The position numbers and the translations under genes were made by a program. A stretch of 64,000 nt of DNA. Origin: a virus (Duplodnaviria; Caudoviricetes). The notes below the pieces were generated by a model. It had not been told where the DNA came from, searched no databases, and was given only the letters and a program-made list of their open reading frames with translations. Location of the stretch: the IMG/VR virus record IMGVR_UViG_2871875081_000002, positions 23,452 to 87,451 of that record, one strand, 5' to 3'. Below, one piece after another: positions 36,153 through 58,627 of this stretch; the first letter of the stretch is position 1, and every line of letters starts with the position of its first letter.

Positions 36153-36250
36153 AATTAATGTTCACAGATTCTTTCTGCTGAGCATAATTCAAATTATTTT
36201 GGTTAACTAAGAGGGGCAGTGTCTTCACAGATACTGCCCCTCGCTTTTTA
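36153..36250 (+). ncRNA. Candidate small RNA (~95 nt)
   Basis: TACCTTTG at 36140-36147 (and TAACTTTG at 36105-36112), no ORF longer than 7 codons, terminator at 36211-36250. Confidence 0.4.
36211..36250 (+). terminator. Intrinsic terminator
   Basis: GAGGGGCAGT...ACTGCCCCTC-gc-TTTTT. Confidence 0.75.
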
Positions 36251-40694: not shown

Positions 40695-41429
40695 TTATGT
40701 ACAATAATAATATTAATTTTCCGTTATTGTGTAGGATAAACCCCGATAAATAGGGGCTTTCTGAAGGATAACACGTGTCAGGTCGTCCTTATAACATGTC
40801 GTCTATAAAATATCGACAATACAAAAATACAGATAATATCCTGAATATCCGGTAAAACCCTAGTAAATAAAGGGTATAAATATACATTTTAGGTATACAT
40901 TAAATGAAGGATAGGTATACATTTATGGTTTGGTCTGCAAAGTAAGAGTTTATGCTATCAAATGTTAATAAATAACGGATGAATGAATATGCATAATTAT
41001 CCTTTATGGTAGGAAGTAATTAAACTTTACAAAAAGGCTGAAAAATCGGAAGAAAAAATTTTTAGATGAGGTGACTACCGCGCTGGTTTATAGCTGCAAA
41101 GGGGGTGTGGGGGTGTTTCTTCTGAAATTATTACATTTTGTGTCGGTTTATATAGTATAAACCATCGTGAAACAATATTTTTGTAATTATTCTAAATTGT
41201 CGGTTTATATTTATAAAAAATTTATGTAACCCCTTAATAACCAACACTTTATAATTTTGTTTATATTCATTTTCTTGCATAAATATACATTATTTCTATT
41301 CCGTGAAACATCAAAACTTATTACAATATACTTGTCCAAAATATATTTACGATATTTATTCATGTATAAATATTCGTGTTTAACTTATTAAATACATTTT
41401 AACGAAATTGTCAAAAGGTTATTACATAA

Positions 41430-41705
41430 GTAGTTAAATTCCTTAACACAAACTGCCACTTTGGCGGGTGTAAATACCTGTAAATCAATTAGTTAGCAAT
41501 TTGTAAAGATTAATGTTTATTAAGTTAAATATTTAACAATTACTGCCACTATACCTTTGTAACTAATTGATTATTAGATAGTTACAAGTCTGTCACGTTG
41601 TCGAAAACGTTAAATTATTTAAACCTTAACAACTACTGACAAATGCTGTAATTATTACAAACGGCTAACTACCTATAAATCAAGTACTTACAAAAGGTTA
41701 AATGC
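41430..41705. repeat. Imperfect ~88-bp periodic repeats in AT-rich intergenic DNA (possible origin)
   Basis: GTTAAAT at 41433, 41524, 41609 and 41697; ACTGCCACT twice; TAACTAATTGATT in both orientations. Confidence 0.45.
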
Positions 41706-41803
41706 ATAAACACTCAATTTTTTACTGGTTGTTTGGTACGTAGTTTGCTATTAGATAGGTAACTAACATATGTTAGTTATAATATATTAAACAATAAATA
41801 GTT

Positions 41804-42333: not shown

Positions 42334-43010
42334 AGATAGCTAGAGAAAAATCTAGCTATCTAGTTTTCCCACCGACTAACTAGCAGTTAGCCAGTGGGAA
42401 ATTTTACTCCAGGTTTTTCAACTTGGAGCGGGTCGTCGTGTCCTTATTTTTCCCACACAATTTTGGAAACCTTGTCGTGGTGTGTGGGCTTAACTCAGAG
42501 AGAGAATTTATTCTCCCTCAGGGGACTAATTGCCAAAATCCAAGAGAAGTATCTCAGTAAATCGAGAGTGCGAGAGGCACACCGAGATGGGAGAGAGTAA
42601 CGTGTTACTCAGAGACATCCATCCGAGAGATACGCAAAAATTCCTGGCGTGAGCGTCGAATGAGATGAGACGGCACGACGGCTAGGGGATTTGTATCATC
42701 TAGCGAGATGAGAGTTTTAGAAAGAAATCATAATTCATATTCTACCGGTTTGGAATTGTCCGGTCGGGCTGGTTACCCGAGAATCAATTGTGTGTGCAAT
42801 CACGATTGCAGCGTTCAAGGTACACACTATCCACGCTGACTGAAATCGGTTGCTTGTCATCCGTGCGAGATTTATCTCCTCAGAAATAAACAAGCTGCTG
42901 GCAGAAGCATAAAATCTGTAGGGTGTGAGCCACGTAGTTAAGACGATAAAGATAAAACGTGGTGCAAAGATGCACATCCTGGCTAACGGGGCGGGGAGAA
43001 ATCTCCGCTC
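42334..43010 (+). ncRNA. Candidate large structured ncRNA (~650 nt)
   Basis: More than 12 hand-identified helices, including a long-range 11-bp pair 42432-42442/42672-42682; no credible ORF. Strand assumed from neighbours. Confidence 0.55.
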
Positions 43011-43039
43011 TACAATTACAAACCATTTATATTAGAATT

Positions 43040-43198
43040 ATGAAACAGAGAATCAAGGAATTTTGCGATAAGTACATGTGGTTTATCTTGCCTGCTTGCA
43101 GCGTTCTAGCTATAATGCTGGGTGTTGTTTTGGAGAAGCATTTTCCACTGAGTGAAATTCTGTATCCTAATCTCCCTACGCTTGTAGGGAACGAATAA
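43040..43198 (+). CDS. Small membrane protein (52 aa)
   Basis: MKQRIKEFCDKYMWFILPACSVLAIMLGVVL; array-type start context. Confidence 0.65.
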   Translation: MKQRIKEFCDKYMWFILPACSVLAIMLGVVLEKHFPLSEILYPNLPTLVGNE

Positions 43199-43215
43199 CC
43201 AAAAATATTAGAATT

Positions 43216-43350
43216 ATGAGTACGCTGAGAATTAAATGCCTCGATATGTGCGAGGTTGAGAGTATCATTGCAGATGCTCAGGAGATTTTGAGTCACGTAG
43301 AATTCGGGTCGTTAAAGAATGGTGTGCTTACATTATTCTGCGTGGCGTGA
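43216..43350 (+). CDS. Small hypothetical protein (44 aa)
   Basis: MSTLRIKCLDMCEVE...; the stop TGA is part of the junction box. Confidence 0.65.
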   Translation: MSTLRIKCLDMCEVESIIADAQEILSHVEFGSLKNGVLTLFCVA

Positions 43351-43368
43351 GCCTAAAAATCTGTAGCC

Positions 43369-43735
43369 AGTACGATAATTGTCGTGCGTGGCTACGGAGC
43401 AATTACCAATAAAATTAGAATTATGAGAGCAAGAAACATCATTTATTCAAGTACGATAATTGTGCTTGGATTTATTCAGAGTGCGCCGGCATTCATTTGC
43501 TTGGCAAGTACGATAATTCTCCTGAATGTGCTTGGAATTTTTTATGGGATTCTGCTTGTGCATATTTGGAGCAGTACGAAAAAGGGCAAGTGGTATTTCC
43601 GCGAGCTGTGGCGATCTACACTCCGCTTGGAGAATTTCATCCTTCCTGGAGTTTAAGAGATTTGGAAAGTACGATAATTGTGCTTGGAAACATTTAGCTA
43701 AATTCTGCTTGGAGAAATCTAGGCAGTACGATAAT
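43369..43735 (+). repeat. Cluster of AGTACGATAAT(TGTGCTTGGA) repeats
   Basis: Copies at 43369, 43450, 43507, 43668 and 43725; another at 45528. Confidence 0.8.
43423..43656 (+). CDS. Small membrane protein (77 aa)
   Basis: MRARNIIYSSTIIVLG...; two hydrophobic segments. Confidence 0.6.
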   Translation: MRARNIIYSSTIIVLGFIQSAPAFICLASTIILLNVLGIFYGILLVHIWSSTKKGKWYFRELWRSTLRLENFILPGV

Positions 43736-43758
43736 ATAACCAATTAAGCAAAAGAATT

Positions 43759-43968
43759 ATGGAAAAGAGAATCAGCAAGGGCGTGCTGTCAGCTGCGCTC
43801 ATATTAGTTACAAGTTTCGTGTGTGGCATTATTGCTATCGCAGGATTTCTGCTTGGAGATTTTCAAGCAGTGTTATATTCTGCGGTTCTTGAAATGTGCG
43901 GTCTATTTATAATTGCGATAATGATAGACACAATTCAGTCACAGATAGATGATATCTGTGAAATGTAG
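43759..43968 (+). CDS. Small two-TM membrane protein
   Basis: 69 aa, hydrophobic. Confidence 0.7.
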   Translation: MEKRISKGVLSAALILVTSFVCGIIAIAGFLLGDFQAVLYSAVLEMCGLFIIAIMIDTIQSQIDDICEM

Positions 43969-44031
43969 CCAAAACTACCGCTTGGAGATATTCGGGCGGT
44001 ATCTAGTATTAACCAATTAAATTACAGAATT

Positions 44032-44229
44032 ATGAAGAAGAATATTTTCGTGGCATTGTTTGCCGTAGTGTGTATTGCATTAGTAATGGTTTCAGTTACT
44101 CTCGTGAATTGTCACAGGGCGAACGTTATGCTGAGGAAAACGGTGTTAGCTCAGGCTAACGAGATTTCAGAGCTGAACGGCTATCACACATCAGAGGGAA
44201 CTACGATGTTCGTAGGTCTCAGAAAGTAG
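44032..44229 (+). CDS. Small membrane-anchored protein
   Basis: 65 aa with N-terminal hydrophobic helix. Confidence 0.7.
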   Translation: MKKNIFVALFAVVCIALVMVSVTLVNCHRANVMLRKTVLAQANEISELNGYHTSEGTTMFVGLRK

Positions 44230-44284
44230 CCAAATCTGAGAGGAGTTTCCGCTCCTCTCTTCTATTAACCAAAATATTAAGAAT

Positions 44285-44617
44285 ATGTACAAGACGATAA
44301 CAAAGGAATTAAGCAAGTGTGAGTTAATTGATATCATGATGGGCATGGACTGCGAGGAAGATATGTGTACACACACATCTATCCAGAGAGTTCTATGTCC
44401 TATACAGGCGTGCGATGAGTTCGGCGGCGATCCTGAGGATTCTCGTCCTCTGCTGCCGGGAACATACCTGGCAGTATATCATGACAAGATGGAGGATGAG
44501 CCGTTTCCTATGTTCGCAAAGATTTGCGCCAACATCATTACAGATGAGAACAAATGTCAGATGCTCATGAACGGAGACGGCTGTATTCTGATTTTCCTGC
44601 TCAACAAGTACGAGTAG
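44285..44617 (+). CDS. Hypothetical protein
   Basis: 110 aa flanked by junction elements. Confidence 0.75.
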   Translation: MYKTITKELSKCELIDIMMGMDCEEDMCTHTSIQRVLCPIQACDEFGGDPEDSRPLLPGTYLAVYHDKMEDEPFPMFAKICANIITDENKCQMLMNGDGCILIFLLNKYE

Positions 44618-44679
44618 CCAAAAATGTGCTCAGGCATTTTCCTGGGCATACTATGTAGAACCATTAAACAAATTGAATT

Positions 44680-44856
44680 ATGTTAGATAAGAAATCACAG
44701 AAGAATTTTGAGCGTGCGCTTATGCATGAGATGGAGAAGATCAAGATTGCTGCACGCCAGTGGCACAATAATAACACCAGAGGCTACAGAGATTATCGTA
44801 GCAAGAAAACTATCTCCAAGAGTTTCTCTGAGATTGCGGTATTGTGCATGAGCTAA
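44680..44856 (+). CDS. Small basic protein (58 aa)
   Basis: MLDKKSQKNFERALMHE...; below track cutoff, junction-flanked. Confidence 0.65.
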   Translation: MLDKKSQKNFERALMHEMEKIKIAARQWHNNNTRGYRDYRSKKTISKSFSEIAVLCMS

Positions 44857-44904
44857 ATGTGCGTGACGATTGTCACGCATACTATTCACCAATATTTAAG
44901 AATT

Positions 44905-45195
44905 ATGATAGATGAAGAATACAAGGAGAATGTAGAGTACATACTCTCTACGATTTTGCCTAAGTTGCAGGAGATTCAGAGAGAAGTATTGAAAAATCAA
45001 TCAAGACTGAGCCTTGATGTTAGCGTTAGCAATAAAAACGGCGAAGGGTATATAAGTTGTTTTGCCTGTGTCATGAATGACATGGGAGAAATAACGGATA
45101 CTTGTTTCCCACGTTTCATCTGCGTATGCAGCAAAGAGGAGATTGACGAGCGGCTTAACGAACTTAAAGAGTTCATCAAGAAGTACCTAGCTTAA
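44905..45195 (+). CDS. Hypothetical protein (96 aa)
   Basis: Start MIDEEYKE after AGAATT. Confidence 0.75.
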   Translation: MIDEEYKENVEYILSTILPKLQEIQREVLKNQSRLSLDVSVSNKNGEGYISCFACVMNDMGEITDTCFPRFICVCSKEEIDERLNELKEFIKKYLA

Positions 45196-45244
45196 AATTG
45201 AGGGAGTTTTATCTCCCTCTCCTATAAACCAAAAATGTAGAATT

Positions 45245-45514
45245 ATGAGCAAATGGGTACAATTCTATCACAAGATTAATAAGTTTGACCTTGTGAACAT
45301 GAGATTTACGGATGATTTCAGTATCGTGGAAATGGTTGGCATGGATTCTATTATGCCTATTGACGGTAGACTTAATCTGTCATCCATACGTGCTGAGATA
45401 CAGAAGAAAATAGAGAGCATGAAGAAAATCGAGAGTTTCGACCCTTGTGCATTCTCCATCCTCACCGGTCCTACGATTCTGTGTGCTTCAGAAAGTCCGG
45501 TGTACAATCTCTGA
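45245..45514 (+). CDS. Hypothetical protein
   Basis: 89 aa, junction-flanked. Confidence 0.75.
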   Translation: MSKWVQFYHKINKFDLVNMRFTDDFSIVEMVGMDSIMPIDGRLNLSSIRAEIQKKIESMKKIESFDPCAFSILTGPTILCASESPVYNL

Positions 45515-45573
45515 GCCAGAACTGGGCAGTACGATAATGTGCTGCCTGCTATTAACCAATAAAATTCAGAATT

Positions 45574-45750
45574 ATGACAGACGGAGACAGAAAGTTCCTT
45601 GCCAGGCTCGTCGCGAGTCACAAGGCAGTTATCAGCGAGGAGTGCAGACGCAAGAACCTCGACAAGAGCGAGTATTTCAGACGCGTAGCACGTGCAGACA
45701 AGAAGGCTCAGGAGATTGAGCAATCGTGCATGCGACCTCGCAAGTTCTAG
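45574..45750 (+). CDS. Small basic protein (58 aa)
   Basis: MTDGDRKFLARLVASHK...; junction-flanked. Confidence 0.65.
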   Translation: MTDGDRKFLARLVASHKAVISEECRRKNLDKSEYFRRVARADKKAQEIEQSCMRPRKF

Positions 45751-45812
45751 CCAAACATTCTGTGCAGATAGGCTGCACAGAAACCATGTTAAACCATCAA
45801 AATTAAAGAATT

Positions 45813-46028
45813 ATGGAGAAAATGACACAGAAAGAGTTGAAAAGACTCGTTAGAGTAGGAGCTGCCAAGGATATAACAGACAGCTCAAGTCGTAACGATA
45901 TCCCTGAAAGATATAGCCAAGTAGGCTACTCTTCTGGAATATACGGATGCAACGGAATGTTGCTTCGTGGCGAGAGCGGTCAGCTGTACGCTGTCTGCGC
46001 AAGAACTACGGCTATCTGGGTTTTCTAG
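45813..46028 (+). CDS. Hypothetical protein
   Basis: 71 aa with GYSSGIYGCNG motif. Confidence 0.75.
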   Translation: MEKMTQKELKRLVRVGAAKDITDSSSRNDIPERYSQVGYSSGIYGCNGMLLRGESGQLYAVCARTTAIWVF

Positions 46029-46092
46029 TCAAAAACACGGGTAAGTGTTTGGTGCGCTTACTCGTTTCTATCATCAACCAAAATACAGAAAT

Positions 46093-46554
46093 ATGAATAT
46101 ACAGAAAGTATGGGATGCGTTTATCAAGGAAAATGATAATCCATCATTCGTAAAGATGGCATATGCCGTAGTAGAGCAGCTTGGCGGTGTTAATGAAGAC
46201 ACACTGCTTAATTCTCTCGATAGTTGCAGAAATGCAAATGACGGGTACACTGGATTCTGTTATCCTTATCAGACAAGCAAGTTCTGGAACGAGAACAAGA
46301 GTGCTATCATGGAGAATATGCACGAGCTTGCCGATGATTTGGGTGAAGACCTTATCACGATGATTAAGGGCTTCGGGAATTTCAAGGACGACAAATCTGT
46401 CACCTATGATGCTATCGGCAAGGCTCTGTATGCTCCTTTTAACGAGGGCGAGAGCAGATACATCTACGACACATTTGCAAAGTATGCACTGGAAGAGGTT
46501 GCGAATCGATTCCAGGACTGGTGGTACGGCCAGGACGAAAGTGAGTTCGATTAG
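46093..46554 (+). CDS. Acidic helical protein (possible Ocr-like DNA mimic)
   Basis: Start MNIQKVW; GYTGFCYPYQTSKFW motif; acidic tail. The function is a guess. Confidence 0.7.
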   Translation: MNIQKVWDAFIKENDNPSFVKMAYAVVEQLGGVNEDTLLNSLDSCRNANDGYTGFCYPYQTSKFWNENKSAIMENMHELADDLGEDLITMIKGFGNFKDDKSVTYDAIGKALYAPFNEGESRYIYDTFAKYALEEVANRFQDWWYGQDESEFD

Positions 46555-46612
46555 CCAAACCAATCCTCACTCCCACGGGTGGGGATTTCTATTAACCAAC
46601 AATTACAGAATT

Positions 46613-46852
46613 ATGAGTGATTTAGAGAAAATCCTGAATGACGATTTGCTGAAGTGTAAAATCGTTGAGTCTGTAGAGAATCCTGTTAGGCGTGTGGACC
46701 TCATCAAGTGGACGCACGACAATACATACTCTATTGCAGAGGTACGCAAGGATACCGGTAAGCTAGAGGTCACAGACTTGAAAGCTGCCAGTGGTCTTGA
46801 AGCATACAAGCATTTCTTCAGAAATTATGGAGACATTGCCATATGTGGCTAA
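46613..46852 (+). CDS. Hypothetical protein (79 aa)
   Basis: Start MSDLEKIL after AGAATT. Confidence 0.7.
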   Translation: MSDLEKILNDDLLKCKIVESVENPVRRVDLIKWTHDNTYSIAEVRKDTGKLEVTDLKAASGLEAYKHFFRNYGDIAICG

Positions 46853-46904
46853 AACTCCCCACGATAATGTGGGGAACCATTATGAACCATTAAACAGATG
46901 AATT

Positions 46905-47444
46905 ATGGAAAAGAATATTTGGGAATATGTTATGAACAGCAAGGGTGAGGTTATCGAGAAAGTAGCCGATTATATCGGTGTTGAAAGCTTCGCCAAGGTA
47001 ATCGAGAGCCTATATCGTGAGTGTCTTGAGAATTTCGATGACGCAGATGATTTAGAAGAATACATTGCCGATTTATACGGAAAGAATATCCAGTCTCTTG
47101 CGTGGGAGTTTACTCTAGAGGCAAACAAGGAGATGAAGAAATATCTCCATAAGGATTCTCAGCATATGGATGGCAATTTCGCCAATCTGTACGAGGACTA
47201 CCCTAAGCACAGAACAGGTGTTTGGCGGGCATCAGACTACGATGGCGACGATTACTACGATTTGTATCCTCAGATGGTAGTCAGACTTGATGCCGCAGAG
47301 GACAGCGAACAGGCTAACGAGGATAGAGAATATCTTGAAGAGTGGTATTTCGAAGCCTTCGGTACGTACAACATCAAGTACAATTTCGGCAATTACCTTG
47401 AAGAGGTTCACTCCATGATGGAGGAAGATTATGAGGAAGCCTAA
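46905..47444 (+). CDS. Very acidic protein
   Basis: 179 aa, roughly one quarter Asp/Glu by hand count. Confidence 0.78.
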   Translation: MEKNIWEYVMNSKGEVIEKVADYIGVESFAKVIESLYRECLENFDDADDLEEYIADLYGKNIQSLAWEFTLEANKEMKKYLHKDSQHMDGNFANLYEDYPKHRTGVWRASDYDGDDYYDLYPQMVVRLDAAEDSEQANEDREYLEEWYFEAFGTYNIKYNFGNYLEEVHSMMEEDYEEA

Positions 47445-47498
47445 CAATATCCCCTAGCATGGGGGTATTCAATGTTAAACCATTTAAATGATTAGATT

Positions 47499-47726
47499 AT
47501 GGAATTTAGAAAAGGAATTATCTACGCAGGACTTGTTCCTGTAGTAGGCGGCATGATGTGGGTTTCAATAACGCCAGACGCTTCAGATTCGGTTCATTTC
47601 TGGAAGAAGAAGCAGTGTGAGCAGTATATTCGCAAGAATTTCTCGGGAGAAGAGAAGAAATATCTCCTCTCTCAGCTGAAAGAAGAGAAAAGAAGAGCTA
47701 AGATATACTCATGGGCAAGACTTTAA
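47499..47726 (+). CDS. Hypothetical protein
   Basis: 75 aa. Confidence 0.7.
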   Translation: MEFRKGIIYAGLVPVVGGMMWVSITPDASDSVHFWKKKQCEQYIRKNFSGEEKKYLLSQLKEEKRRAKIYSWARL

Positions 47727-47737
47727 AACATACGATC

Positions 47738-47866
47738 ATGAAGCAGGTAATAGTAAGACTCAAGGGAGATTTCTACAGCATGAATACATATTGTAGTACT
47801 CTGAAGGAATTTTTAGAAAAGAGAAACCTGAAGCGCTCTGATGTTGCAGAGTGGTGGAAGGAGTAG
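47738..47866 (+). CDS. Small protein (42 aa)
   Basis: MKQVIVRLKGDFYSM...; ends in TAGCCTAAC. Confidence 0.6.
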   Translation: MKQVIVRLKGDFYSMNTYCSTLKEFLEKRNLKRSDVAEWWKE

Positions 47867-47920
47867 CCTAACAAGGGGAGCTTGCATGCTCCTCTTCTAT
47901 GAACCAAAATACAGAGAATT

Positions 47921-48178
47921 ATGGAAAGAATTACATTTGTTGAAAAAGGCAGTAGAATAATCTACAGACTTGGCAGACGTATAGTATGCTACAGAGATGG
48001 TTACAGAGTTTATTTCGGTAAGCCATCAGATGTTACACACAACACGTTCGATGCACTATCAGAGAATATAGCACATGAGTATTGCCTGAAAGTTTGTGAG
48101 CATAAAAAGTGGGAGAAAGCAAAGTACAGCAAACCTGTCGCATACAACGCACACAGAGTATTGAACGCATTAGCCTAA
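47921..48178 (+). CDS. Hypothetical protein
   Basis: 85 aa. Confidence 0.72.
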   Translation: MERITFVEKGSRIIYRLGRRIVCYRDGYRVYFGKPSDVTHNTFDALSENIAHEYCLKVCEHKKWEKAKYSKPVAYNAHRVLNALA

Positions 48179-48224
48179 AGATAGCCTCCGGGCTATCACT
48201 ATAACCAATTAAATAAAGAGAATT

Positions 48225-48638
48225 ATGACGAAAGAAGCAAAAAAGGTATTCGATAAGTTTTTCAATATCCATCGTGACAACGTTGCAGGTAAGACTATCT
48301 GCTTTATCTCACGTGGAGAGTGGTCTGATCCTCAGATTGCGTACAAGGGCTATCTCCTTAACTACTGGGATGTGCTAGAGCTGGCGTGTCCTGAAGATGC
48401 GCCGGATGATTACGAACCAGACGAAACAGAATGGTATGACGCTTGTGTGGATTCTCTATTCGGCTACACAGATTGCGGCTTAAAACCTGACAAGTTTGAG
48501 CCATCAGACGCTATGAGCGTGACAGATATCATTAACGGAGGGAGCAATCCCTCTGACATTATTAACCAAATTATTAAAGATTATGAAGAGATATTACGTA
48601 TCAGTCACAGAACATTTGAACAAGGTAGTAAGTGTTGA
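48225..48638 (+). CDS. Acidic hypothetical protein whose C-terminus reads through a junction element
   Basis: 137 aa; overlaps the next gene by 56 bp. Confidence 0.65.
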   Translation: MTKEAKKVFDKFFNIHRDNVAGKTICFISRGEWSDPQIAYKGYLLNYWDVLELACPEDAPDDYEPDETEWYDACVDSLFGYTDCGLKPDKFEPSDAMSVTDIINGGSNPSDIINQIIKDYEEILRISHRTFEQGSKC

Positions 48639-48798
48639 TGCTGAGAGTGAGAATGAAGCCGTACAGAAAGTGCAGGATGCCTATAATAATAGCGATATTA
48701 TTCTCGACTCTGAAAATTTCGCAGGTGAGGTAATTGAGATTGAACCAGACCAGCAGTTCTGCTCTGATTATGATGATTCTTACGAGCACATCGACTAG
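48583..48798 (+). CDS. DpnD/PcfM-like protein
   Basis: YVSVTEHLNKVVSVDAESENEAVQKVQDAY...IILDSENF pattern. Confidence 0.7.
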   Translation: MKRYYVSVTEHLNKVVSVDAESENEAVQKVQDAYNNSDIILDSENFAGEVIEIEPDQQFCSDYDDSYEHID

Positions 48799-48846
48799 CC
48801 AAACGGGGAGAGTAATCTCCCTACCAATAACCAAAACATCATAGAT

Positions 48847-49023
48847 ATGAAGAATTTAGGAATACAGGACATCTGTATGGTTAAGCACGGACTGGCTGCT
48901 TTGATAGCCAACGAGAAGGTCACTCTTAAAATCGCCATCAAGAAAGGCGACAAAGAGCAGATAGAAAGAAGTAACTCATATATTGATGAGGTAAATTCAG
49001 TTATCAAAAAACTAAACTCGTAG
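48847..49023 (+). CDS. Small helical protein (58 aa)
   Basis: MKNLGIQDICMVKHGL... Confidence 0.6.
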   Translation: MKNLGIQDICMVKHGLAALIANEKVTLKIAIKKGDKEQIERSNSYIDEVNSVIKKLNS

Positions 49024-49028
49024 GAATT

Positions 49029-49208
49029 ATGGGGAAAATCAAAGTAGGAATGAGAGTGTATTGTGACATACATTCTCAGTCAAAGGATCACATCGTGACT
49101 CACGTTTCAGAGAAAAGAGGATTCGCGGGAATTGATAACGAATACTGGTGGCCCATAGACCAGTGTTTCCCCTGCGATGAAATAACATTGCCTAAAAAGC
49201 GCAGCTAA
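49029..49208 (+). CDS. Small SH3/KOW-like protein (59 aa)
   Basis: MGKIKVGMRVYCD...YWWPIDQC. Confidence 0.6.
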   Translation: MGKIKVGMRVYCDIHSQSKDHIVTHVSEKRGFAGIDNEYWWPIDQCFPCDEITLPKKRS

Positions 49209-49240
49209 GGACTGCGCGCAATAACCAATACAGTAGAATT

Positions 49241-49693
49241 ATGACATACGACGAGATCATCAATGCAGTTGAGAATGGTGCAAAGTTCACAATCAACTTC
49301 CAGAAGAGAACATGTAGGGTGAATGGTAAGATAGTGATGTCCGAGGAAGATAAGCCGAAAGATACACCTTACCTGACACATGCAGTAGTTCTGTTCGCAA
49401 TAGAACAGAGATATAAGGCATACAAGCATTCTGTGCCATCAGAGCGTTCCGAATCCCATCGCCGCTACTACTTCAAGGCTTTGCCAGAGAAAGAGCTCAC
49501 AGACGAAGATATGATGTATGGTGAGCGACGGGAGGTAGCGAGATGCAAGCTAGAACTATACGTCCTTATGCAGCTGCTTAGAGGAAACCTTGCATGGGAG
49601 AACAGATGGGGAAGATGGTTCTGGAAGTCCGAGAACGACAAGGACCTGATTATCCTCAGAGACTGGGTTGAGCCAAACAAGGGTGGGGCGTAA
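49241..49693 (+). CDS. Hypothetical protein
   Basis: 150 aa. Confidence 0.78.
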   Translation: MTYDEIINAVENGAKFTINFQKRTCRVNGKIVMSEEDKPKDTPYLTHAVVLFAIEQRYKAYKHSVPSERSESHRRYYFKALPEKELTDEDMMYGERREVARCKLELYVLMQLLRGNLAWENRWGRWFWKSENDKDLIILRDWVEPNKGGA

Positions 49694-49750
49694 GCCTCAT
49701 CCACTAGAGTTAAATAAATTTTTAGTAACCAATTTAAAATAATTAGAATT

Positions 49751-50806
49751 ATGAAGCAGATTGTAACAATCACTGGTGAGAACTTGAACATCGTAACTAA
49801 CAATGTAGAGGCTACAGCAGCTACCGGTAAGAAGACCAAGGCGCAGATGCGACTCGAAGCTCTTAAGGCAGCAGGTGTTGATACTAGTAAATATTTCCCT
49901 CTCGGTGACGACCAGCTTATCAAAATCGAAAATGGCGCAGCAGTTCCTGTAGACATGGACGATGCAACCATCGATGCGGTAGGCAAGCAGATTGTCGAGG
50001 GTGGATACGTAAGTAACTGGAAGCTCTTCCGTCGTTGGGTGATGAGTCAGATGTTCCACATGTTGCGAGACATGGATAAGAACGGACGCACATTCAACGA
50101 GGTGTTGCAGCACAAGGGCTACGAGTATCAGTGGCGCATGTTGGAGAACGAGCTGTATGCTCAGATGAAGATGTGTGACCACAAGGACTACGAGAACACC
50201 AAGGCGAGAAATCGCTGGTTCAACGGCTGCGTAGCACACGATATGGCTATTGACTATATTAACAAGCTTCGCAGCTACATTGACGACAAGTGCATCTACA
50301 CTACCAAGAAAGACAAGGATGGAAACGAGAAGAAGACATACAAGCATACCTGCAAGGGTAATCCTTATATCCGTCTTCAGAACGAGGACATTTTTGTCGC
50401 AGACTTGGAGAAAAAGGTCTATACTCCTCTCCGTAACCTTGCCAACAAAATGGGTGCTGCAACGACCTACAAGGAGCTCTACGATGCAGTTCGCGAGTTC
50501 AACAAGAACCGCAAGCATCTCGCATGGGATACCAAGCAGGCAGATGCATTCATTCATGCTTACAAAGGGTCTGGTTCCTACTACACGATGAGAAACCTCA
50601 TCATGTTCCATGGAGCAAGATTCATGAAGAACGGACGAAAGATGTCAGAGGCTAATTCTCTGAAGGAACTTGAGTCTAAAGCCAAGCTCTACGATGAAGA
50701 GGGTTGGAAGATGCTCGGTGTACTCAAGCAGCTTATCAAGGACAATAATATAAGCGTACAGGGCAAGATTCTTGAATGGAAGAAAGCCAAGAGCGAGAAC
50801 AAGTAA
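49751..50806 (+). CDS. Hypothetical protein
   Basis: 351-aa ORF with strong coding-like composition. Confidence 0.85.
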   Translation: MKQIVTITGENLNIVTNNVEATAATGKKTKAQMRLEALKAAGVDTSKYFPLGDDQLIKIENGAAVPVDMDDATIDAVGKQIVEGGYVSNWKLFRRWVMSQMFHMLRDMDKNGRTFNEVLQHKGYEYQWRMLENELYAQMKMCDHKDYENTKARNRWFNGCVAHDMAIDYINKLRSYIDDKCIYTTKKDKDGNEKKTYKHTCKGNPYIRLQNEDIFVADLEKKVYTPLRNLANKMGAATTYKELYDAVREFNKNRKHLAWDTKQADAFIHAYKGSGSYYTMRNLIMFHGARFMKNGRKMSEANSLKELESKAKLYDEEGWKMLGVLKQLIKDNNISVQGKILEWKKAKSENK

Positions 50807-50838
50807 TCATCAGTAAGACGTAAGGTTCGCCGCCTGAA

Positions 50839-50976
50839 GAATGGTGGCCCGGCAGCTATGTGTTTACAAGAGCTTCTTCAACGAAGGATCTCCTCCAGTC
50901 ACTACTGGAGGTAATCCTTCGAGCTAAAGCTCTCTAGATCGAACTTATAGAGTAAGGCGCCAGCCGGGAGCCATTC
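50839..50976 (+). ncRNA. Candidate structured RNA element (three-way junction)
   Basis: Six nested helices identified by hand in a non-coding gap. Confidence 0.5.
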
Positions 50977-51040
50977 TAGCCAAAAGTCGGTTACTTATTC
51001 GGTAACCGATTCAATGTTTAACCAAATAAAATGAGGAATT

Positions 51041-51463
51041 ATGAAGAAAATCAAGAAGATAATCTATGTAGACAAGCTTACTCCAGCACCCCTTGACAAC
51101 AAGAATGTCATGCTGGACTGGTGGGAAGAGAATATGTTCGACGACGGAAGCTACGCATTCTCAGGTAATACGTATCTAGGATTCATTGCCGGTGTTCCGG
51201 TAATGGCCACAGTCAAGAGCAATGTTGTCGAGCTGAAATGTATCCCGCAGCCCTACAGAAGCACGGACAAGCTTGATGATTTCGGAAATGCAGTCATAAA
51301 AAACTTGACTGAAGACGAATGTCACCTAACGACCTACATGGTTCCGGCGTACAAGCAGTACATAGATGACGAGCGTGAGGGAGACGCAAAACTACTAATA
51401 TCGTTCTCCATCTACGAAGACGAAGCGACGATTTCATTCCATTGGAACATACCGAAAGATTAG
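51041..51463 (+). CDS. Hypothetical protein
   Basis: 140 aa. Confidence 0.78.
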   Translation: MKKIKKIIYVDKLTPAPLDNKNVMLDWWEENMFDDGSYAFSGNTYLGFIAGVPVMATVKSNVVELKCIPQPYRSTDKLDDFGNAVIKNLTEDECHLTTYMVPAYKQYIDDEREGDAKLLISFSIYEDEATISFHWNIPKD

Positions 51464-51596
51464 CCAAACATGTCAGTCGTTAACAGCGGCTGACTACTCA
51501 TATCATAACTAAATTTTGTTTAAATGGTTCAAAGCCGGTCTGTCGTGAGACACGCCGGTTTTTTGTTCCCAAAGTTTAACCAATTAAATTAGAATT

Positions 51597-52301
51597 ATGA
51601 GTAGAAATTACTGGACATTAGGTAAGGAAGGAATGAAGACTCGTCTGTCAAAGGCACAGGCAGCTTATGAGAACGCAGTAGAGAACGTCAGCGACTTGCA
51701 TGTCAAGATCAGTGATGGCAACACAAAATTGGGAGCTATCCCATCCGTGTCGCTCATCCCGGTCATGGATTGCGGTAACTGTGCAATATGCGCCAAGAGC
51801 TGCTACGACCTCCGCAACGACTTCATCTATAAAGAGGTTATCAAGACGAGAGCTATCAACTCTGCCATCCTCCACGAGGATCCTGAGCGATACTTCAAGG
51901 AGATTGACGGATATCTTGACTACAGATTCCCTCGTGCATTCCGATTCCACATCGGCGGCGACATACAGGACAAATGGCATCTTGATAAGATGTGCGAGAT
52001 TGCTCGCAAGCATAAGGATACCAAGTTCCTGGCGTTCACGAAGATGTTCGATGTGTGTAACGAGTACCTTGATGAAGGAAACGTCATTCCTGAGAACATG
52101 CACATCCTATTCAGCGGATGGCTTGGTCTCAAGATGGATAACCGCCACGGATTTCCGGAGGCGCATCCTATCTTCGAGAGCGGAACGTCTGCTCCGGAAG
52201 GAACACGTCTATGTACCGGAAACTGCACAGAGTGTCTGAAGGAAGATAGGTTGTGCTGGTCTATCGGGAAAGGACAGGCGGTAGGATTCCTCGCACACTA
52301 G
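51597..52301 (+). CDS. Gp88-like Cys-rich phage protein (radical SAM-like)
   Basis: GNTKLG...SL...CxxCxxCxxxCY...FRFHIGGD...FLAFTK. Confidence 0.75.
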   Translation: MSRNYWTLGKEGMKTRLSKAQAAYENAVENVSDLHVKISDGNTKLGAIPSVSLIPVMDCGNCAICAKSCYDLRNDFIYKEVIKTRAINSAILHEDPERYFKEIDGYLDYRFPRAFRFHIGGDIQDKWHLDKMCEIARKHKDTKFLAFTKMFDVCNEYLDEGNVIPENMHILFSGWLGLKMDNRHGFPEAHPIFESGTSAPEGTRLCTGNCTECLKEDRLCWSIGKGQAVGFLAH

Positions 52302-52361
52302 CCAAAATCCTCGTCAGGAATGACGGGGTACATTATGTCTAACCAATTAAAATTTTGAATT

Positions 52362-52796
52362 ATGGCAACAGCAAGAAGAGGTACAAGAATGCTCAAAGCT
52401 TCTGACATCATGAAGAGAAAGGGCATTGTCCAGAAACAGATGGACATGGACAAGTTCAACGAGGTTGTAGAGAATTTCTTTATGACCCATGAGCCTAAGG
52501 AAACGATTCTCCTAACTCCGAAGAGATTCATCGAGATGGATAACCCGCCAGAGGGAGACTTCATTGACTATCTCGATGTCAGCGTTTGGGAGAAGAAGAG
52601 TGAGGACCCGGATGACCCGTTCGACTTCATAGACTATCAGTTCATGAAGAAGAACGGTATGCTCCGTCCTATCCTTATGGTGAACGAGCCTTTCATCGGC
52701 AATGCTGCCGGGTGGCTGAGAGATTTTTGTGGATTCACTGTGAAGAGCAGAACACGAAAGAAGAAGAAGGAATACATCGTGTCTCTGCCGGTGTAA
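52362..52796 (+). CDS. Hypothetical protein
   Basis: 144 aa. Confidence 0.75.
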   Translation: MATARRGTRMLKASDIMKRKGIVQKQMDMDKFNEVVENFFMTHEPKETILLTPKRFIEMDNPPEGDFIDYLDVSVWEKKSEDPDDPFDFIDYQFMKKNGMLRPILMVNEPFIGNAAGWLRDFCGFTVKSRTRKKKKEYIVSLPV

Positions 52797-52855
52797 AGCC
52801 GAACAAGGCGTGGAACAATCCGTTTCACGCTCCTAGTATTAACCAATTAAAATTT

Positions 52856-53455
52856 ATGAATATGACTGATATTGAAAGAGTAAAGAGATTCGCATCCGAG
52901 AATGATTACCCAGGTGAGACATTGGACACAATCAACTGCTTCCGCAGACACAGTAAGACTCCAAAGGAAGACCTCGACAGCCTGGATAAGGCAACCGATG
53001 AGGACTGGCTAGGTCTTATAGATGAGTACGAGGGCAATGGAATCAACTGGAAGGGAGAGTTCTCGGACGTTAACGGAAACAGCGTAACGCTAGGCGACAA
53101 GGTTATGTGGAACAATCCGGATCCTGATGATTTCGCTAAGTGGTACGAGAATTTCAAGATATGCACCGTAGAAGATATATCAGGAGACCGAATATCACTC
53201 AAGGACGATGACGGAGATACGTTCGATGTAACCGAGGATGAATGTACTTTAGTTCGAAAGCCTGACTACAAGCTATATGAGGACGAGAAGTATCACTATG
53301 GAGTGTGTGGAATGCTCCAGGATATCGAGAATGCCCGCACAATGACGAGCTATATCCATGATGACGACCTCAGATGGAAGCTTGATGCTGCGTGCAGATG
53401 GTTCAAGGAACACATTGAGGCTGAGATTGCCAATCACATCGTAGAGAACCAGTAA
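52856..53455 (+). CDS. Acidic hypothetical protein with SH3/KOW-like segment
   Basis: Likely start MNMTDIE at 52856; DVNGNSVTLGDKV. Confidence 0.75.
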   Translation: MNMTDIERVKRFASENDYPGETLDTINCFRRHSKTPKEDLDSLDKATDEDWLGLIDEYEGNGINWKGEFSDVNGNSVTLGDKVMWNNPDPDDFAKWYENFKICTVEDISGDRISLKDDDGDTFDVTEDECTLVRKPDYKLYEDEKYHYGVCGMLQDIENARTMTSYIHDDDLRWKLDAACRWFKEHIEAEIANHIVENQ

Positions 53456-53511
53456 TCCAAACAAGCCTGCCAGGAACGGCGGGCATCAAGTTAAACCAAA
53501 ATATTAAGATT

Positions 53512-53832
53512 ATGGATAGAAAAGTATTGAAAGACAAGATTGATGAGTTGCGTTCAACAGCAAAGATGGAGCTTGCATGCACCATCCGTGAGATAATGAG
53601 AGAGCACGGAATCCTCAGCAAAGAGCTGAAGCATCCGGTTATGTGCAGCGACAAAATATTCGAAGCTGTCCTCATTGAAATTAATGACGAGGACACCTCC
53701 ATCCCGGCTATCACGCTCCGTGTAATGAGCTACAAAAGAGTGGCGAAGAGAGTGTCCTCTACGGATTTCGAGATGGATATCGAGTCGCTCGCCCGTATTG
53801 CTTACGGGCTAAACGATGAGTTCGAAAGTTAA
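53512..53832 (+). CDS. Hypothetical protein
   Basis: 106 aa. Confidence 0.75.
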   Translation: MDRKVLKDKIDELRSTAKMELACTIREIMREHGILSKELKHPVMCSDKIFEAVLIEINDEDTSIPAITLRVMSYKRVAKRVSSTDFEMDIESLARIAYGLNDEFES

Positions 53833-53881
53833 TTTAGCGTTAAAAACGGCAAAGATGATGGTTTATATTATAAACTTTTCG

Positions 53882-53889
53882 TATCTTTG
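53882..53889 (+). promoter_or_regulatory. -7 promoter element (TATCTTTG) for the internal recombinase
   Basis: 27 bp upstream of the ATG at 53916. Confidence 0.55.
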
Positions 53890-53915
53890 CCACTAGTAAC
53901 CAAAATATTAGAATT

Positions 53916-54935
53916 ATGACAGAAGAAATAAGAATCAAGACAAGAGATTGGGAGAGACTTCTGAGCTACACTCAGCAGCAGAAGTACAAGACTGCCATCA
54001 AGCAGGGTTGGTTCGCCAATTATCACAGCAACGCCTGGAGGCATGACACGTTCTATGGCGCATACATCTGGAAATACCCGAAGCTTATTAAGGTTGTAAG
54101 GATGTTCGAAGAGATGCTTGGACATAAGCCATTATGGGAAGACATCACCGACGACAATCTGCGCGACCTCTTCGAGAAGATCCAGGAGAACTACGCTCCT
54201 AACTCGGCAAGAACCGTATGCGCAACCATCAAGGCTGTGATACGTGAGAACGATGCTACCAGGGAAATTCCTAGTCCTACGTTCGGCAGAATACTTAGAG
54301 CGAAGGCTGTACCGGTCCAGTCTGTATATCTCTCTGATGAGGAGATAAACAGAATCATAAAGTACAACCCTCACGGGAAAACAAAAAGATATGTTCAGAG
54401 AATGTTTATCATGGAATGTCTCTGTGGCGCACGTTACAGCGACTGCCAGAGAATGACGGAAGAGAACATAGATGATACCGGACACTTCCTCGTCTATGTT
54501 ACTCAGAAGACAAAGACCGAGGTAAGGGTTCCACTTCACAAGAAGCTCCGTAAGTTCCTCGTATGCGGTACTGGTGACGAGCCTCTTCCGGGTGAGATAG
54601 GTGAAAGGACGTTCAATAGAGCACTCCGCGAAATCTGTCGTGACTGCGGAATAGATACGAATACAAAGGTGTTCAAAGCTGGAAAGGAAGAGACAGGAAA
54701 GAAGTATCGGTTCGTATCATCCCATACGGGCAGACGCTCGTTCGCAACGAATCTCTCAAAGAAGGGAGTACCTCTTGAGCAGATTGCCGTCATGATGGGA
54801 CATACCAGTAACGGTATGCCTAATATACAGATGACACAGCGCTACATTGTCGGTAAGACCGAGATTGACAGCAATACACTGAGATTGTTCGGCGTCTATG
54901 AAGAAGACCTCGATAATGGTCTAGATGAGGATTAA
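53916..54935 (+). CDS. Tyrosine recombinase lacking an obvious arm-binding domain
   Basis: GARYSD (R), QKT (K), HTGRR (HxxR), MMGH (H), QRY (Y); SAM-like core-binding domain. Confidence 0.9.
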   Translation: MTEEIRIKTRDWERLLSYTQQQKYKTAIKQGWFANYHSNAWRHDTFYGAYIWKYPKLIKVVRMFEEMLGHKPLWEDITDDNLRDLFEKIQENYAPNSARTVCATIKAVIRENDATREIPSPTFGRILRAKAVPVQSVYLSDEEINRIIKYNPHGKTKRYVQRMFIMECLCGARYSDCQRMTEENIDDTGHFLVYVTQKTKTEVRVPLHKKLRKFLVCGTGDEPLPGEIGERTFNRALREICRDCGIDTNTKVFKAGKEETGKKYRFVSSHTGRRSFATNLSKKGVPLEQIAVMMGHTSNGMPNIQMTQRYIVGKTEIDSNTLRLFGVYEEDLDNGLDED

Positions 54936-54992
54936 GCTAAAACTGGAGGTGGTTAGCTGCCATCTCCTGCCATTGTTTAACCAATTAAAATA

Positions 54993-55421
54993 ATGAATAT
55001 GGTAGAAGATTATACAGTAGAAGAGTTGAATAAACTCATCAATGAGTGCCGGAAGAAGTACGAAAAGCTAGAAAAGGAGACCGTTATGAAGGCTCTGACT
55101 GGTGAGATTGGCACGAACTCCGCAATGGTGGAAGAGTTGGAGATTCTCAACATCCACTATCACGATGAAATGGATGAGTACGACATCACTGCACCTGACC
55201 TGAATCCAGATCTTATCGAAAACTTCAAGAAGGCAGAGCGTGATGGCAAGAACGTCATCTTCGAGGCACAGGAATATCTTAAGATTCTGGGAATGTGCGA
55301 AGAGATGTTCAACCAGAAGATGTGGGTCAACGAAGATGGCCACATATGCGATGAAGAAGGTAATAGACTTTCCGCCGACAGAGAACATCGTGTTTTCGAA
55401 GTTGTTAAGTGCGGGAAATAA
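54993..55421 (+). CDS. Acidic hypothetical protein
   Basis: 142 aa. Confidence 0.75.
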   Translation: MNMVEDYTVEELNKLINECRKKYEKLEKETVMKALTGEIGTNSAMVEELEILNIHYHDEMDEYDITAPDLNPDLIENFKKAERDGKNVIFEAQEYLKILGMCEEMFNQKMWVNEDGHICDEEGNRLSADREHRVFEVVKCGK

Positions 55422-57715: not shown

Positions 57716-58627
57716 ATGGCAAGAATAACAAGAAACAAAGCTGCCGAGATACTGGGAGTATCAAGACAGACTATCAGCAACTACATCAAGGAAGGCATCC
57801 TTGGAAGCTACGTAGGCGAACACGGCATCCTGTATGTCAACAGCGAGGATATCGAGAAATATGCTCAGAAATACAAGATGATTGCAGCAAACGAGAAGAT
57901 GATTGACGAGAAGCTCAAGGAAGTCGAGTATCGCAAGCGCGCAATCAACGTAGAGCTCACTGAACTGAGAGACAGAGCTACCGCAAACGGCAAGCTGGCT
58001 GCAAACGCCGTAGGCATGCTGTTCGGTGTAATCAACACAATGTCGCATCTTGGTGTATTACCGAATCTTACCTATCGTGAGTCCAATCTTCTCAAGGACA
58101 TAATTAACGGAATGACCTATGACGAGCTGTCAATCAAGTACGGCGTGTCTGCAACGAGAATCAGGCAGATTATAGACAAGACTTGCAACAAGCTTACCTA
58201 CAACGAGAATATTGTCATTGCTGAGCTCTCAACGAACAGAACCTTGCAGTATGAGGTTGAGCGCCTGAAGAAGGTAATCAAGTCGCTACAGGTAAGCTTC
58301 GACGAATACCGGCGCGCGAAAGGAGACAAGCCTGTCAGTAGCGCAGTTCTTCCTCCGCTGATCCTTTCTAGGGATATAAAGGAATGTGGCTTCTCTGTCC
58401 GCATTCTGAATGCACTCAAAGGCTTCGACGTATATACCGTAGGCGACTTGGTTCGTAATCTCCGGGGAAGGTCAGAGCTTATGAAACTCAGGACTCTCGG
58501 CAGGAAGAGCGTCTGGGCTATCCTTGACTTCGTTGAGGAAAACAATCTCGACTTCAAGGAGAACGGAGAGTCTGAGGAAGACTTCTATATCAGGCTCAAT
58601 AACAAGTTGTCAAACCAAAAAGATTAA
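57716..58627 (+). CDS. Regulator: N-terminal HTH, sigma-region-4-like HTH and RNAP alpha-CTD-like domain
   Basis: ITRNKAAEILGVSRQTI; MTYDELSIKYGVSATRIRQI; FSVRILNALK...TVGDLV...LMKLRTLGRKS. Confidence 0.8.
   Translation: MARITRNKAAEILGVSRQTISNYIKEGILGSYVGEHGILYVNSEDIEKYAQKYKMIAANEKMIDEKLKEVEYRKRAINVELTELRDRATANGKLAANAVGMLFGVINTMSHLGVLPNLTYRESNLLKDIINGMTYDELSIKYGVSATRIRQIIDKTCNKLTYNENIVIAELSTNRTLQYEVERLKKVIKSLQVSFDEYRRAKGDKPVSSAVLPPLILSRDIKECGFSVRILNALKGFDVYTVGDLVRNLRGRSELMKLRTLGRKSVWAILDFVEENNLDFKENGESEEDFYIRLNNKLSNQKD

Follow-up and report, generated by a model that had tools for sequence, protein, structure and literature searches.

A structured prophage RNA with a predicted 5' cleavage site and two segments complementary to the junctions of a downstream gene array

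A common gut-bacterial prophage, of Segatella copri type, encodes on its + strand a structured non-coding RNA that matches no Rfam family over its whole length. The element is real and apparently undescribed, and a literature search found no published account of this RNA. The first-pass annotation had proposed a large, ornate non-coding RNA in the same gap, and its claim of a structured phage-encoded RNA is upheld here; the carriers of the conserved signal, which it did not contain, are a 5' ribozyme fold and two short segments (seeds) complementary to the junctions of the gene array that follows. The sequence evidence for pairing between seeds and junctions is strong, and the + strand RNA very probably pairs with the array junctions. 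It is likely that a defined 5' end is produced in the slot occupied by the ribozyme fold, and the RNA probably cuts itself out of its transcript. Whether the outcome of pairing is repression in trans is an even question.

Setting and composition of the element

The window (the whole stretch of DNA analysed, 64,000 nt) is part of an 87,451-nt provirus. Besides the chromosome of S. copri HDD04, further assemblies of S. copri and Prevotella carry the same element, as do well over a hundred IMG/VR records. A blastn search with the element returned no GenBank phage, the nearest named phage being LoVEphage, with 28 % primase identity and another layout, while pattern, model and primase searches of 150–400 S. 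copri relatives yielded HDD04 and chance matches only. The gene order comprises a leftward D5-type primase-helicase, an AT-rich gap, the rightward gene 1, a non-coding gap of ~715 nt and ~28 small genes, and it is kept in metagenome contigs with primases 46–68 % identical. Read from the sequence, gene 1, a terminator-like hairpin, the RNA and the array form one + strand operon, with the following features.

41760–41779 (+): operon start with a small hairpin, equivalent to the HDD04 primary transcription start site (TSS); covaries with L154
41804–42325 (+): gene 1, 173 aa, all-helical and fast-evolving, always directly 5' of the RNA
42334–42367 (+): terminator-like hairpin and U-run after gene 1, with compensatory alleles
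42366–42400, 42407–42428 and 42430–42443 (+): three local hairpins 5' of the predicted cut, whose alleles keep pairing
42452–42545 (+): HDV-like ribozyme fold (descriptor search, covariation), with the predicted cut at 42451/42452
42452–42458/42482–42488 (+): P1 of this fold; P2 is 42461–42467/42539–42545, with an alternative 3' strand near 42530
42469–42471/42479–42481 (+): P3 of this fold; L3 is 42472–42478, P1.1 is 42474/42489 and P4 runs from 42494
42549–42724 (+): hypervariable hairpin module, one of at least nine unrelated alleles
42725–42744 (+): seed 1, an invariant 20-mer, complement of GAAUUAUGA (42728–42736) and AGAAUAUGA (42735–42743)
42744–42764 (+): spacer hairpin between the seeds, variable in sequence
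42764–42780 (+): seed 2 hairpin with UGGUU loop (42770–42774), complement of the AACCA box; covariation
42790–42900 (+): more swappable hairpin modules (allele comparison)
42920–42980 (+): 3' domain of two nested helices around an A-rich loop; covariation
42981–43042 (+): first array junction with box, hairpin, AACCA (43021–43025) and GAATTATG, the first predicted target
43040–55421 (+): array of ~28 small genes, 25 with a two-part target before the start codon (motif count)

Pfam, PHROG, Atlas and fold searches returned no match for gene 1. The hairpin at 42334, which had been taken as the beginning of the RNA, is more likely the terminator of gene 1 than a part of the RNA, since a U-run follows it; the RNA itself is likely to start near 42452. 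At the other end, the proposal that the RNA stops at the first junction is plausible. A regulator with HTH, sigma region 4-like and RNA polymerase alpha-CTD-like domains is encoded further along the window (57716–58627).

Published dRNA-seq of HDD04 places a primary TSS at 913761 (bioRxiv 10.1101/2024.04.05.588293, Table S1; coordinates matched to CP152484), a stationary-phase start 41 nt upstream of gene 1. Neither strand has a further TSS within the following 15 kb, in calls that cannot reveal 5'-OH ends. In the portion of the published expression table consulted, gene 1 is transcribed in the HDD04 lysogen (~500 counts), and the 26 intergenic sRNAs listed for the uninduced lysogen include none that maps to the gap. 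The single TSS, the transcription of gene 1 and the lack of a listed sRNA in the gap fit an operon that would mostly stop at the hairpin after gene 1 and be read through on induction. In the same portion of the published tables, gene 1 (L154:1801–2322; HDD04 P4D_00808) is ~4.5-fold lower in an SrcF deletion strain, and a link between this host sRNA and the prophage is possible. Four public gut 'RNA' runs cover the phage evenly and assemble into contigs of up to 98 kb; they thus behave as DNA and are uninformative on expression.

The gap had been described as GC-rich, free of credible open reading frames and densely paired. Its GC content (45–46 %) does exceed that of the intergenic DNA at 41000–41800 (27 %) but merely equals the phage average. 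The absence of a credible ORF is borne out, as + strand ORFs are not kept between alleles. A reverse-strand peptide starting at the ATG of seed 1 was considered and rejected, the frame varying at random from 3 to 75 codons. Every helix strand listed in the first-pass annotation is present at the coordinates given there. Folding is better than in shuffled controls over the whole gap (z −4.7 on the + strand and −5.5 on the − strand), but this signal is owed to the first hairpins: the interior (42430–42985) is barely better than shuffles (z −1.07), and 200-nt windows within it give z of −1.0, −0.1 and −0.5. Since 21 of 22 half-regions from 11 divergent homologues have negative z, the structure of the gap is modest yet consistent.

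Covariation among homologues supports some of the proposed helices and not others. The CCCACAC/GTGTGGG helix covaries and is P1 of the HDV-like fold, and inspection of alleles likewise backs ACCGG/CCGGT, GTATCTC/GAGATAC and the slot of CTCCA/TGGAG. By contrast, the long-range helix between 42432 and 42672 was not sustained: its 5' arm is often without a partner, no compensatory change was seen, and the local covarying hairpin at 42430–42443 takes the same bases. In the 3' domain at 42920–42980, 99 % of cells are paired, double changes occur at five pairs and G-U occurs at 7 of 14 pairs on the + strand; here and below, covariation counts were taken without correction for the relatedness of the sequences. 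A third seed in the A-rich loop of this domain was also considered and found unsupported, the same word standing in sense in the junctions as well. Comparison of relatives reveals the gap to be a mosaic of unrelated alleles, consisting of swappable hairpin modules that meet at short shared joints, and three of its parts are conserved: the HDV-like fold, the start-motif seed and the UGGUU hairpin.

Two seeds and their predicted targets in the array

The array extends over ~13 kb, and each of its junctions opens with a box and a hairpin that resemble a processing site. An AACCA box lies 9–19 nt 5' of nearly all array starts, and the two seeds stand in the RNA in the order that antiparallel pairing with AACCA and the start motif demands. 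The two-part target is present at 25 of 28 array starts, against 3 of the 288 starts in the host and 1 of the 57 elsewhere in the phage. GAATTATG has 21 + strand occurrences in the 87-kb genome, every one of them at an array start, and two − strand occurrences, one of which is in the seed.

Seed 1 is complementary to GAAUUAUGA and AGAAUAUGA, which are two overlapping array start contexts, and its 20-mer is invariant at ~150 loci between at least nine unrelated upstream and ~10 downstream alleles. In the window, the UGGUU of seed 2 follows about 25 nt 3' of seed 1; among relatives, the distance between the two words ranges from ~20 to 110 nt and is filled by hairpins. The stem of seed 2 changes freely while its pairing is kept (double changes at five of five pairs), and of 48 contexts, 67 % place UGGUU in the loop of a hairpin, compared with 14–16 % in controls. 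No words of at least six letters other than TCATATTC and (G)TGGTT are shared by all 16 divergent lineages, in which primase identity falls to 46 %; the regions were anchored by seed 1, which occurs once per gap, with a chance of roughly 1 % each by our own estimate. The universal part of the RNA amounts to ~14 nt only. Both words are also present in all four loci retrieved independently through gene 1 (27–38 % identity), with new perfect stems in two of them.

When every 12-mer from either strand of the gap was scanned for pairing with the array as opposed to the host, 42725–42740 ranked first and 42769–42782 was among the next few. The predicted duplexes, which are short and AU-rich, have energies of about −9.3 and −5.5 kcal/mol, and fewer than 1 % of host starts equal the summed value. 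Seed 1 is only partly open in folding models (0.12–0.18 unpaired), and a further folding analysis gave a mixed picture. In a few clades a weak correspondence is seen, in that where arrays seldom use GAATTATG the RNA is without the extra anti-GAAUUAUG half and has the anti-AGAAUAUGA half only. No lineage was found with an altered target and a matching altered seed; a relative with another start motif (L348, 34 % primase identity) is without such a gap and is uninformative on covariation.

The array is colinear, only 2 of 1623 gene pairs occurring in both orders among 93 arrays, with variation spread over all slots and no inversion seen in this set. At the head of the array, replacement affects the slot of the first gene most often, and the distance from the seed to the first ATG is held near 280–410 nt.

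Several further observations concern the arrays. An isolated junction of the same type (hairpin, AACCA, GAATTATG) precedes a very short ORF where the leftward operon ends (36160–36240, − strand). The first array genes contain six sense-strand GTACGA copies, five of them as AGTACGAT (43369–43735), and all 15 lineages checked have a comparable cluster, likewise confined to the sense strand, that lies after the RNA or reaches into it; these may be protein-loading or antitermination sites. An arm-less tyrosine recombinase is encoded inside the array (53916–54935); 134 viral records contain it, as do distant relatives. A dif-like site was considered and rejected, its likeness to dif as generally known being limited to the central bases. 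The array cargo of relatives includes ArdA anti-restriction protein and reverse transcriptase (L461:9196–9753; L357:1063–2331), and the ardA gene in one such array is consistent with early anti-host functions. In L348 (1–2720, − strand), a similar array has another junction (CACTAA ... GCCTTATG) and lacks a large gap; a stretch of 8 nt complementary to its junction box, ~250 nt upstream, may be due to chance.

Exchangeable devices in the 5' slot

A descriptor search found a nested double pseudoknot comprising P1, P2, P3, P1.1 and P4 at 42452–42545, with a descriptor that has one background match per 800 kb. Double changes occur at six of the seven P1 pairs, P1.1 is found as G-C, A-U or U-A, P3 is invariant, and P2 covaries by inspection. 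U20 and G25 in L3 and the cytosine at the start of J4/2 are invariant in A7; in the window allele, this cytosine could lie in either of two registers, at 42526 or 42533–42534. Two sister alleles (L021 and L124) score 38.3 and 36.8 bits against the Rfam model RF02682, whose gathering threshold is 44 (E 0.0016 and 0.0036), and the window allele scores 16.6 bits (E 4.2). The first pair at the predicted cleavage site is C1-G37 in 14 of 14 distinct rows and G1 is absent, whereas G1 marks the cleavage site in known HDV-like members (PMC10879173). Because of this difference, the activity of the fold is not certain, and the cleavage predicted from its sequence may be slow or absent.

Other devices occupy the same slot in relatives. 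Twister-P5 ribozymes scoring above the Rfam gathering threshold stand there on the RNA strand in L335 (7215–7280, −) and L336 (5027–5096, −), as does a type III hammerhead in L303 (8494–8550, −), all three 290–440 nt 5' of the seed. In L297, L352 and L464, a tRNA-like acceptor and T-arm minihelix takes the slot about 355–390 nt 5' of the seed and is possibly an RNase P or RNase Z site. The 147 distinct 5' regions divide into 108 with only the HDV core, 28 with only a −7 promoter of the Bacteroidota kind (a match that arises in ~2 % of shuffles), four with both and seven with neither. In L461, L157, L466 and L067, no known 5' module was found in the 5' part of the gap, and these alleles may hide further ribozyme variants. 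In another relative (L327), an apparent hammerhead and a twister flank a small ORF.

That several unrelated devices share one slot suggests selection for a defined 5' end. These devices lie on the + strand, as do the G-U pairs of the covarying stems, and the RNA strand is therefore fixed as +.

Proposed action, rival explanations and known systems

On the best reading, which from sequence comparison has an even chance of being correct, the element would be an antisense RNA, processed and bearing two seeds, by which translation is shut off throughout the downstream array. In such a scheme, the terminator of gene 1 would be read through on induction or infection, and the ribozyme would cut at 42451/42452 to give a stable, pseudoknot-capped RNA with a 5'-OH, its 3' end probably being set at the first junction. 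The UGGUU loop would nucleate on the AACCA box, whereupon seed 1 would cover positions of about −6 to +4 around the AUG and block 30S loading. The freed RNA would accumulate, and array translation would be off after an early burst; as the RNA would be made with each array transcript and outlast it, it would serve as a delayed off-switch for an early array. With a common junction, any gene swapped into the array would fall under the same control. Counting against this antisense reading are the absence of the RNA from the listed sRNAs, the short AU-rich duplexes, the only partly open seed, the few clades behind the seed-target correspondence and the atypical C1-G37; one RNA for ~25 targets also needs accumulation, and a 500-nt scaffold far exceeds the needs of steric blocking.

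Rather unlikely is a cis-acting leader, in which the ribozyme or promoter would only stabilize the 5' end of the array mRNA, no RNA would be freed, and the seeds would gate read-through or translation of their own transcript at the first or each junction. The minimum-energy fold of 42720–43050 does pair seed 1 with the first start codon, the spacing between them is constrained, and the single operon has no evident 3' end or terminator for the RNA; nevertheless, control of the first gene would leave AACCA and the start motif at 25 genes unexplained, and it is the first gene that is most often replaced at the array head. A little less probable again is a guide with an effector, in which an RNA that frees itself and has a large scaffold would read a shared two-part address at every array gene and deliver an activity there with turnover, its pairing recruiting a ribosome, a nuclease or the gene 1 protein so that translation is activated or the polycistron is cut at each junction. 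Such turnover would resolve the 1:25 ratio, and the large scaffold, the conserved A-rich 3' domain and the processing-site appearance of each junction start would suit it. Seed 1, however, overlies the AUG itself, and pairing over the AUG normally blocks initiation in bacteria; ~14 universal nucleotides are too few for a catalytic core of the RNA's own, and the array starts are already AU-rich and open. Also in favour of a guide, S. copri is without a consensus ribosome-binding site (bioRxiv 10.1101/2024.04.05.588293). Were the guide reading true, the element would be an RNA-addressed gene-expression system, reprogrammable via two short seeds, whose activity would consist either in loading ribosomes, in a host that lacks Shine-Dalgarno pairing, or in cutting the polycistron.

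It is improbable that the two words function on the minus strand or at the DNA level, where they would repeat the junction motif in sense, as a protein site, a decoy or a recombination joint for the tyrosine recombinase. Alleles do switch exactly at the 20-mer, the recombinase gene is as widespread as described above, and the asymmetry of G-U versus A-C is flat among S. copri alleles. Set against this, the G-U pairs of the covarying stems work on the + strand only, distant lineages included, the ribozymes lie on + and there is no minus-strand TSS; moreover, the array is colinear with almost no permutation and no inversion seen, and the variable spacing of the words is taken up by hairpins. An ornate RNA of the ROOL/GOLLD kind, acting as an RNA-only oligomer to which the junction complementarity is incidental, is very improbable: size, prophage location and several covarying hairpins agree with it, but the element has no Rfam match and no tRNAs, its non-homologous modules swap freely around a weakly folded interior, and the conserved bases are exactly those matching the junctions. 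Equally faint is the prospect that the RNA binds initiator tRNA, UGGUU pairing with its AACCA end and CAU mimicking an anticodon, as the junctions account for both words more simply.

If the antisense reading holds, a single RNA could switch an entire gene array in one step, which would show how a phage holds freely swapped accessory genes under one control. Most large phage RNAs are without a known target, whereas this RNA has ~25 predicted targets and a predicted cut site. It would give self-cleaving ribozymes a biological role, with at least three unrelated classes in one slot. The element also directs attention to a C1-G37 variant of the HDV-like fold and to start codons under RNA control in the Bacteroidota, a group that lacks ordinary Shine-Dalgarno pairing. 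As HDD04 is a genetically tractable lysogen with existing dRNA-seq data, the mechanism is directly testable.

Among known systems, the UGGU(U) loop, able to pair with (A)ACCA, recalls the T-box antiterminator and RNase P L15 (UGGN or GGU with tRNA NCCA). There is, in contrast, no specifier stem or RNase P core here, the matching AACCA stands in the array junctions, and Rfam and ARAGORN gave no match to T-box, RNase P RNA or tmRNA. Integron cassette arrays and T4-type PeSL repeats resemble the present array in that small genes are separated by a recurring junction and exchanged slot by slot; unlike these, the present array is colinear, with no leader-polarized or permuted cassettes (neither attI-type shuffling nor head-polarized insertion was seen in the 93 arrays), and its junction is matched by an upstream RNA.

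The HDV-like fold shares with RF02682 (HDV-F-prausnitzii) and the theta ribozymes (PMC10879173) the nested double pseudoknot, a 7-bp P1, a 3-bp P3, a 7-nt L3 with U20 and G25, the C in J4/2 and a gut phage context. It differs in its invariant C1-G37 in place of G1, in having no tRNA beside it, and in heading a long RNA where it is interchangeable with twister and hammerhead.

In its action, the proposed RNA may be likened to C4 of P1/P7 (RF01695) and CI of P4 (PMC8546580). It shares with them a pair of short seeds that complement sites further along the same operon, and it matches neither RF01695 nor related models of the ~80-nt cloverleaf in Rfam. As P1 C4 and P4 CI are generally understood to act, their 5' end is made by RNase P alone and their seeds vary with the immunity group, whereas here the end would be made by a predicted ribozyme, a tRNA-like arm or a promoter and the seeds are invariant across phages. 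C4 and CI are ~80 nt long, as opposed to about 500 nt here; the present RNA has ~25 targets, one per gene and over the start codon, its host belongs to the Bacteroidota, and there is no Rfam similarity.

With ROOL and GOLLD (PMC5737381, PMC12286853), to which the first-pass annotation had compared it as a member or as a new class, the element shares its nature as a large prophage-encoded non-coding RNA with few invariant bases. Membership is not supported, since the ROOL and GOLLD covariance models of Rfam gave no match at gathering or at E up to 10, the window contains no tRNA genes (which often adjoin ROOL and GOLLD) and non-homologous alleles swap freely; a place outside Rfam is what stands. 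The mosaic alleles, the weak interior z and the unsupported long-range helix argue against a single ornate fold of that type. In place of a conserved multi-junction or pseudoknot architecture over the whole length, this RNA is built of modular alleles and, in contrast to ROOL and GOLLD, has identifiable, predicted mRNA targets.
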